DNA of 59,043 nucleotides. Origin: Candidatus Parcubacteria bacterium (GTDB lineage: Bacteria; Patescibacteriota; Patescibacteriia; Patescibacteriales; UBA12075). The stretch spans positions 1 to 59,043 of the forward strand of contig PKTK01000009.1 in assembly GCA_002869165.1 (NCBI GenBank), written 5' to 3'. The position numbers and the translations under genes were made by a program. This document shows, one piece after another, positions 43,275-43,538 of the stretch (position 1 is its first letter; each line of letters begins with the position of its first letter). The notes below the pieces were generated by a model. It had not been told where the DNA came from. It worked only from the letters and a program-made list of their open reading frames with translations, and ran no database searches.

Positions 43275-43303
43275 TTGACAAGTGTCAAAACTTGTGCTAA
43301 GTT
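43275..43303 (+). promoter_or_regulatory. sigma70 promoter for the candidate ncRNA
   Basis: TTGACA (43275-43280), 17-bp spacer, TGnTAAGTT (43298-43303). Confidence 0.7.
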
Positions 43304-43309
43304 TGCATA

Positions 43310-43538
43310 ATTGTTAAGCGTTGATTAAAGAACTGCTTGCCAAAAGGAACTGGTTAAATTTTTTTCCTCCTTGTAAATTTAACCTTTATCTTCTTTGGCA
43401 GGCTGTTCTCTAATCAAACAAAAATACCTGATTTAACGTCTAGGAGTAGGCGATTATAGTTCTTACCCTCCTTGAGCTATCTTTTGCCTTTACAAGGTTA
43501 TCCTTGGCTTCTAGATGTTAAGTTGGGTATTTTTTTTG
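43310..43538 (+). ncRNA. Candidate ~225-nt ncRNA: two long hairpins each displaying CCUCCUU (anti-SD) in the apical loop
   Basis: Hairpin 1 43321-43417; hairpin 2 43422-43532 with an uninterrupted 26-bp stem including 6 G.U pairs, followed by a U-run; no ORF. Confidence 0.7.

Follow-up and report, generated by a model that had tools for sequence, protein, structure and literature searches.

The window, a 59,043-nucleotide stretch of contig PKTK01000009.1 from a Candidatus Parcubacteria bacterium, contains on its plus strand, divergent from dprA, a gene region for a structured RNA whose two long hairpins (HP1 and HP2) each display the anti-Shine-Dalgarno (anti-SD) heptamer CCUCCUU in an apical loop. 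Because both hairpins covary, GC and GU pairs alternate, and promoter and terminators are conserved among relatives, the sequences identify this region as a real non-coding RNA gene read from the plus strand. Across the order and beyond, only the CCUCCU loops of the family are invariant, while the stems change, and the family is found neither in Rfam nor in the literature searched. We judge the chances to be about even that HP1 and HP2 are a pair of trans-acting small RNAs (sRNAs) that occlude Shine-Dalgarno (SD) sites in a genome in which few genes have them. An earlier note on this DNA had described the promoter, the two hairpins, a side hairpin, the U-run and the heptamer in both apical loops, and direct reading and folding place each of these where it had put them (Table 1).

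Structure, strand and conservation of the RNA

The plus strand between 43305 and 43545 folds at -92.6 kcal/mol, compared with a mean of -46.5 kcal/mol for shuffled sequences (z = -10.8; none of 200 shuffles as good), whereas the reverse strand of the same region reaches -64.4 kcal/mol (z = -5.8) and is thus 28 kcal/mol weaker. The two loop copies of CCTCCTT are the only ones on the plus strand of the whole window, the remaining seven copies of the heptamer being AAGGAGG on that strand. By its sequence the element has its own promoter and terminator and is non-coding, and its transcription is predicted; with only 2 nt between them, HP1 and HP2 are probably co-transcribed here from one promoter. 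A small open reading frame (ORF) in HP1 (43321-43413, 30 aa, TTG start) is taken as non-coding because substitutions track base-pairing, and throughout HP1 and HP2 the substitutions follow RNA-type covariation and not a codon pattern. The element is single copy in its own 1.43-Mb genome, which rules out a repeated or mobile element.

Table 1 Features of the RNA locus and its divergent neighbour (positions in the window; MFE, minimum free energy)
Feature	Position	Strand	Description
RNA region, promoter to U-run	43275-43538	+	promoter, two long hairpins, U-run
Promoter	43275..43303	+	sigma-70-type; -35 TTGACA 43275-43280; 17-nt spacer; extended -10 TGC-TAAGTT
Promoter -10	TG 43295-43296, hexamer TAAGTT 43298-43303	+	read directly; start predicted near 43310
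HP1	43321..43417	+	MFE fold; long interrupted hairpin, 35 pairs
HP1 stems	within 43321..43417	+	conserved lower stem ACUGCUUGCC/GGCAGGCUGU; apical stem GGUUAAAUUU/AAAUUUAACC
HP1 apical loop	43362-43374	+	13 nt, UUUUCCUCCUUGU
Anti-SD heptamer CCUCCUU, HP1 apical loop	43366..43372	+	read directly and fold
HP2	43420..43534	+	MFE fold; three-way junction, 46 pairs, 8 of them G.U
HP2 closing stem	within 43420..43534	+	~28 bp, core CUAGGAG/CUUCUAG; arm 1 and side hairpin above it
HP2 arm 1	43456-43480	+	loop UUACCCUCCUU
Anti-SD heptamer CCUCCUU (CCCUCCUU), HP2 arm 1 loop	43467..43473	+	read directly and fold
HP2 side hairpin (arm 2)	43493..43506	+	CAAGG-UUAU-CCUUG; fold
U8 run	43530..43537	+	3' end of HP2 closing stem; stem and U-run form a probable intrinsic terminator
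dprA (context)	42126..43223	-	divergent neighbour; Pfam DNA_processg_A and DprA_WH; no SD before ATG

Plain BLAST searches of 60 relatives returned only chance AT-rich matches, mostly to SD regions on the other strand. Homologues were reached through the dprA loci of same-family genomes (DprA ~50% identical) together with an inverted-repeat scan, in which the same two hairpins adjoin dprA in most same-family genera. At the eleven relatives' loci read, the stems vary, the lower stems retain their cores (AUUWCUGCUUGYC/GRCAAGCAGWAAU in HP1; UGCCUAGGAGUGG/GCUCUUAGGCA in HP2), and the loops always include CCUCCU. Covariance models were built from the dprA-side loci for HP2 (R1) and HP1 (R2), along with a broader model (R3). 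At the locus itself, R2 matches 43315-43419 with 67.5 bits, and R1 and R3 match 43421-43533 with 90.7 and 74.4 bits, respectively; on homologues, R1 scores 50-108 bits on the forward strand and 30-39 bits on the reverse.

Base-pairing is maintained through extensive compensatory change. Among 49 HP2 sequences, 92.7% of alignment cells are paired, compared with 38-53% in slid controls, and 263 cells carry double changes, compared with 67.6 after shuffling, a number reached by 0 of 500 shuffles; changes on both sides occur at 30 of the 32 pairs. The 26 HP1 sequences behave alike, with 89.7% of cells paired (29-50% in slid controls) and 103 double-change cells (36.5 shuffled). Relatives keep the side hairpin of HP2, with a U-rich tetraloop on a stem of 4-6 bp, and this stem covaries, with GC, AU, and GU found at all four modelled positions. 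Alternation between GC and GU is frequent in HP2 (at one pair, GU 22, GC 14, AU 11) and points to the plus strand, since a GU pair would be an A.C mismatch on the other one. Upstream of HP1, TTGACA-17-TGnTAAnnT is present in 28 of 32 homologous loci; the -10 hexamer in the window is weak relative to consensus (3/6), yet the extended TG is conserved. Downstream of HP2, relatives have either a direct U-run or a separate terminator hairpin within ~30 nt. The plus-strand assignment made in the earlier note is borne out by all of these features.

Transcription in the opposite direction, as a 5' leader of dprA or as a CsrB-like sponge whose AAGGAGG/GGA loops bind CsrA, has a very small chance of being correct. 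A GGA in a hairpin loop is a CsrA site, on that strand dprA follows downstream of the region, and CsrB and RsmZ likewise show one short motif in repeated hairpins. However, the motif lies on the wrong strand: G.U pairs become A.C mismatches there, the fold is the weaker one, and promoter and terminators are conserved on the plus strand. In addition, CsrA (PF02599) occurs in 0 of 31 genomes in which positive controls were detected, and tblastn finds no CsrA or Hfq. The absence of CsrA, the fold, the covariation, and the plus-strand promoter essentially refute the sponge. AAGGAGG on the reverse strand has no downstream start codon and, as the earlier note had it, no ORF stands there in the program-made list.

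The same note had treated the locus as one RNA with two hairpins. Both hairpins are present, but the comparison resolves them into two paralogous modules. In relatives the spacer between HP1 and HP2 ranges from 0 to 226 nt and often holds a second promoter (TTGACA-17-TAATAA in one family, TATAAT in the family of this genome), so that the two modules are separate genes in many relatives; one relative has HP1 alone, with its own terminator. In genome G125, an insertion of 226 nt with a long inverted repeat at its ends (GAGATAGTTATAAAATTACTTT...AAAGTAATTTTATAACTATCTC) separates HP1 from HP2 and resembles a miniature inverted-repeat transposable element. We read HP1 and HP2 as probable paralogues that arose by duplication in this order, because R1 and R2 weakly cross-match each other's targets and because the form of the RNA in other orders combines an HP1-like stem motif (UGCUUGCC/GGCAAGCA) with an HP2-like junction.

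The loops are conserved far more strictly than the stems that carry them. When homologues are folded individually, the single hairpin loop of HP1 holds UCCUCCU in 26 of 26 MFE structures and the arm loop of HP2 holds CCCUCC(U) in ~27 of 30; in the 49-sequence alignment of HP2, CCCUCCU is intact in 46. The loop context is UUCCUCCUUG in HP1 and (U/A)CCCUCCU(U/G) in HP2, and CCCUCCU is also kept in other orders, in a ~135-nt form, and in another class. The alignments of HP2 and the ~135-nt form show no conserved purine partner for the loop within the molecule, so the loop appears free. Fold and alignment thus agree on an accessible, conserved seed complementary to SD sequences, and invariant loops on compensating stems, the pattern that the earlier note had proposed looking for beside dprA, are what the homologues there have.

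Rfam 15 at gathering score gives no match in the region (and one tRNA elsewhere), a cmscan of the region at a permissive cutoff (E up to 10) yields nothing but chance miRNA-like matches, on HP1, and a literature search found no description of this RNA family. The 6S and Csr-type families that the earlier note had named are thus not matched. It is hardly credible that the element is a diverged housekeeping RNA, such as signal recognition particle (SRP)/4.5S or 6S RNA, missed by the Rfam models. It is a single-copy rod-like RNA, and no Bacteria_small_SRP (RF00169) match was found in this genome or in 12 relatives. However, the permissive scan also gives no SRP, 6S, tmRNA, or RNase P match in the region, which has no GNRA tetraloop or domain IV motif, and the scan together with the missing motif contradicts an SRP or 6S RNA. 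Ffh and FtsY are undetected in the genome, so an SRP RNA is not expected, and the RNA is absent from seven single-contig genomes. A preliminary tblastn search with E. coli queries found no Ffh or FtsY in this genome, while SecY was found at 5e-86; no SRP domain IV motif was found in the genome. Either the SRP pathway would be missing or very diverged in this family, or its genes may lie on unassembled pieces.

Distribution and linkage to dprA

Of the 301 genomes sampled in the order, 109 have an HP2 detected by R1, in single copy; they represent 62 of 96 genera. Of the 30 best loci, 26 also have HP1, on the same strand as HP2 and 5' of it, and further families show this arrangement too. R3 adds 53 genomes from other orders of the class, where the form is a single ~135-nt three-way-junction RNA with a CCCUCCU loop and a longer second arm, which is probably the ancestral form. 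At two such loci (L131 and L134), the ~135-nt RNA lies 20-60 nt upstream of three to four tRNA genes on the same strand and looks as if it were the head of a stable-RNA operon. In other classes of the phylum, R3 matches four genomes of family f199 (67-77 bits) and, more weakly, two genomes in two further families. A named record that carries the RNA is JAQUYG010000001.1, a 'Candidatus Paceibacterota' metagenome-assembled genome (MAG), and the closest named DprA comes from a 'Candidatus Falkowbacteria' MAG. A second, sensitive search of 34 'negative' genomes found the RNA in 3 and confirmed its absence from 31. Because it is absent from seven single-contig genomes in this second search, the RNA is, as far as these sequences indicate, dispensable, as one would expect of a regulator more than of a core RNA.

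In the order, both features lie on one contig in 79 genomes, and in 74 of these HP2 is divergent from dprA, at 55-743 nt from the dprA start. The same divergent arrangement is found at 12 of 17 loci in other orders, and the gene on the far side of the RNA varies (pth operon, tRNA cluster, others). In many genomes the dprA ATG and the RNA promoter are only ~50-120 nt apart. Streptococcal csRNAs act on comC. These observations are consistent with a regulator of dprA or of DNA uptake, acting through a back-to-back control region, co-regulation or transcriptional interference, or a competence-like regulon, and the -35 element lies within a palindrome. We nevertheless regard such a role as unlikely. 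In all relatives read, dprA starts without an SD, and it has no other complement to the loops, so it is not an obvious pairing target. Wider synteny is kept as well, with rpsU ~6-7 kb away in many genomes, so the linkage may be inherited gene order. Moreover, the RNA is 20-33 kb from dprA in genus g58, no dprA lies within 1.5 kb of it in family f199, and dprA is retained in genomes that lack the RNA.

The palindrome, TTGACAAGTGTCAA, is perfect, occupies 43275-43288, and lies ~50 nt from the SD-less dprA start. One half is the -35 hexamer, so that TTGACA occurs on both strands, and the palindrome may serve as a control site that is shared or bidirectional. At 8-17 nt before the dprA ATG stands a -10-like box (TAAAAT here, TAATAT in one family; window 43224-43260), which suggests that dprA mRNAs are leaderless or have very short leaders. 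On one side of the RNA lie dprA and topA, on the other a convergent der-pth-phosphatase operon. This operon is closed by a bidirectional terminator-like hairpin (AACTCGGTC...GACCGAGTT, T-runs on both strands) at 43686-43710, ~150 nt downstream of the sRNA.

Shine-Dalgarno use and the action of the loops

Loss of anti-SD sequences and of bS21 has been reported in Parcubacteria (PMC9297842). The genome that carries the window is poor in SD sequences, with ~10% of its genes SD-led. Among its 950 ORFs of 150 aa or more, any GGAG, GAGG, or AGGA occurs at -20 to -4 before 14% of first ATGs, compared with 12% of internal control ATGs, although GGAG forms a sharp peak at -11/-10 in ~55 of the 950. When any start codon is allowed, a strong SD precedes at most 90 of these long ORFs and another 135 ORFs of 50-149 aa, giving 225 SD-led starts compared with 76 for scrambled control motifs. 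Across the order, an SD-like motif stands before the first ATG in only 5-12% of ORFs of at least 150 aa, near the internal-ATG background. Despite this, a canonical anti-SD is present in 29 of the 30 16S rRNA ends read. Most SD-led genes are short; among 20 SD-led proteins sampled, 11 lack a Pfam family, and the others are mostly of accessory type (receiver domain, HAD, MFS, SpoVR).

The 16S rRNA gene of this genome ends in GGAUCACCUCCUUUCUAG, whose CCUCCU(U) core is identical to the loops. The likeness is confined to that core. The GAUCA and UUUCUAG flanks of the tail are absent from the loops, the base 5' of CCUCC is U in HP1, C in HP2, and A in the tail, and the motif sits in a closed hairpin loop here and in a free 3' end there. 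A full mimic of the 16S tail (GAUCA-CCUCC-UUUCU) is thus not what the loops present, and core-only copying favours pairing with AGGAGG over mimicry of the whole tail. In the leaders of this genome, which include a AAAGGAGGAAAAAATG class, the base after GGAGG is A in 47%, extending the pairing with UCCUCC of the HP1 loop, and T, the base that would lengthen the pairing with 16S rRNA, in 25%.

The presence of the RNA follows neither the 16S anti-SD sequence nor bS21. The tail GGAUCACCUCCUUUCUAG is identical in 15 RNA-positive and in 14 of 15 RNA-negative genomes, and a link of the RNA to loss or change of the 16S anti-SD is rejected on this basis. One RNA-negative genome (G033) has a mutated anti-SD (GGAUUAUCUCCUUUCU instead of GGAUCACCUCCUUUCU). 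A link to bS21, also raised for this locus earlier, fails in the same way: 14 of 16 RNA-positive and 11 of 15 RNA-negative genomes encode a diverged bS21, without an association of the two, and the leader of rpsU matches the 16S tail and not the sRNA loops. This leader (window ~50686-50711) carries a conserved CUAGAAAGG(N)AGGUG in at least 20 genomes of the order. This motif complements the 16S tail CACCUCCUUUCUAG over an extended length, with a 1-nt bulge, is present with or without the sRNA, usually has no GGAGG, and fits the sRNA loops poorly. Its conservation in genomes that make little other use of SDs suggests that bS21 may be autoregulated through the anti-SD in a manner like that of Bacteroidetes.

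The reading to which we give about even chances is that HP1 (~100 nt) and HP2 (~115 nt) act as two paralogous sRNAs, expressed here from one promoter, each with a long, nuclease-resistant stem that would present the apical loop (U/C)CCUCCU(U). The loops would pair with AGGAGG-type SD sites, first by kissing and then by extension, and the paired SD would block binding of the 30S subunit, repressing the small, SD-led, and mostly accessory fraction of mRNAs. Most genes of the lineage initiate without an SD. Pairing with SDs is the simplest mechanism because the loops copy only the core of the tail, no internal partner is seen, and the long stems are protective, a layout like that of known sRNAs with loop seeds. 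Expression, targets, and a repressive outcome are what we infer beyond the gene family itself.

SD density offers a weak hint only. In 20-kb samples of RNA-positive and RNA-negative genomes, SD-led starts number 38 and 17 per 400 kb, respectively (binomial p = 0.006, phylogeny uncontrolled), and ORFs with an SD-like motif make up 11.8% and 5.1% (Fisher p = 0.005). Several observations weigh against SD occlusion, beginning with this trend: the 2.2-fold difference is driven by two genomes of the same family as ours, and it is gone inside genus g58 (6 RNA-positive vs 9 RNA-negative per 120 kb). By motif alone, the candidate targets are ~150-225 SD-led ORFs; a generic seed of 6-7 nt fits all of these mRNAs and identifies no specific target, and stoichiometric silencing of so many would need a very abundant RNA. 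The best-conserved SD of the order, in the rpsU leader, fits the 16S tail and not the loops. SD pairing does not account for the near-invariant linkage to dprA, which is SD-less. The fold also exceeds the needs of an antisense seed, with its three-way junction, junction bases UUAAAU, side hairpin, and sequence-conserved lower stems, and this elaborate conserved architecture hints at a protein or ribosome partner. Finally, among public sequencing runs, only DNA runs of the source bioreactor hold the stretch, and no RNA run with it was found.

A tentative possibility, to which we give a modest chance, is a free-standing anti-SD module, in which an abundant three-way-junction RNA or ribonucleoprotein (RNP), conserved across Patescibacteria, would present in trans the core of the 16S tail. 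In lineages where SD-led initiation has mostly been given up, such a module would discriminate globally, capturing SD-bearing mRNAs (accessory, mobile, or phage) or gating a factor's access to the ribosomal anti-SD.

We are somewhat more doubtful of a decoy RNP, in which the CCUCCU core would titrate or recruit a factor that recognizes the 16S tail, such as an assembly GTPase or KH-domain protein like Era, a 3'-end maturation nuclease, or tail binders of the bS21/bS18 type. The architecture that goes beyond a seed-only sRNA is consistent with a decoy, as are the single copy, the strong promoter, and the position at the head of a tRNA operon in some genomes, like a stable RNA. The retention of a canonical anti-SD in a lineage that hardly uses SDs and the long conserved tail complement of rpsU, which implies regulated access to the tail, point in the same direction. 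However, the loops have neither flank of the real tail, and Era needs GAUCA. The RNA tracks neither bS21 nor the 16S tail sequence, complete genomes with the same ribosome features lack it, and no candidate partner gene is linked to it.

It is quite improbable that the loops instead pair with a purine-rich structural RNA (a GGAGG in 16S rRNA, its precursor, or its trailer) in ribosome biogenesis or quality control. The RNA looks stable and is sometimes co-transcribed with tRNAs, and all genomes read share a conserved UAGGGAG after the 16S 3' end. However, the complement of the loops (AAGGAGGG/A) does not match this trailer, and the RNA is dispensable in complete genomes with identical rRNA ends.

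Relation to known RNAs and significance for the lineage

The earlier note knew of no described RNA family with this design, a statement that has to be withdrawn. In Alphaproteobacteria, the cuckoo/CcsR/alpha-r14 (RSs0680) RNAs place two to four hairpins side by side, every one with covarying stems and a CCUCCUCCC anti-SD loop; the loop motif is their only conserved sequence, and the paralogous modules stand in tandem (PMC4615179). C-rich hairpin loops of RNAIII of Firmicutes likewise pair with SD regions (PMC4615179), and sRNAs that bind SDs through C-rich loops are a known class. The RNA described here shares with cuckoo/CcsR the adjacent hairpins with a repeated anti-SD-like pyrimidine loop, the compensatory stems, and the tandem paralogous modules. 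It differs in its motif, which is UCCUCCU or CCCUCCU and never CCUCCUCCC, in its 100-115-nt modules with closing stems of 25-30 bp compared with hairpins of 24-50 nt, and in the three-way junction of HP2 and of the form outside the order. It also belongs to another phylum and genomic context, that of a MAG of an ultra-small bacterium of the Candidate Phyla Radiation (CPR)/Patescibacteria. Because no covariance-model match connects them, the sequences make cuckoo/CcsR an analogue, not a homologue.

RsaE/RoxS and LhrC1-5 of Firmicutes and the streptococcal csRNAs use C/U-rich loops to block initiation at SDs, do not need Hfq for it, and often occur as sibling copies; the csRNAs carry anti-SD sequences and act on competence. 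An unpaired C/U-rich loop motif and sibling copies are common to these RNAs and to HP1 and HP2. However, their motifs are UCCC or CCCC, whereas an exact CCUCCU is found here, they are restricted to a genus or family, whereas this RNA is class-wide and more, and their hosts use SDs for most genes, whereas the host here does not. No Rfam model match links the family to these RNAs, and it is not a homologue of them either. By analogy, the RNA would be a known kind of regulator, an anti-SD loop sRNA, in a family not previously described in the literature searched. It stands out by its range across a class and more of the CPR, by the three-way junction of its form outside the order, and by hosts that hardly use SDs.

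Almost nothing is known of RNA-based regulation in the CPR, whose members are uncultured and have ~1-Mb genomes with few recognisable regulators. This family offers class-wide conservation, covariation, a fixed address beside dprA, and one invariant element, the anti-SD core. The use of SDs by ~5-12% of genes, together with a canonical anti-SD that is nevertheless kept, raises the question of what the SD/anti-SD interaction is for in these organisms, and the RNA is a handle on it. If the loops do pair with SDs, CPR bacteria would possess an RNA that globally silences their SD-led, largely accessory genes. A free-standing anti-SD module would amount to a separate layer of translational control and not to an ordinary target-specific sRNA, and if the RNA is instead bound by a protein, it would point to a factor that acts on the mRNA-binding tail of the ribosome.

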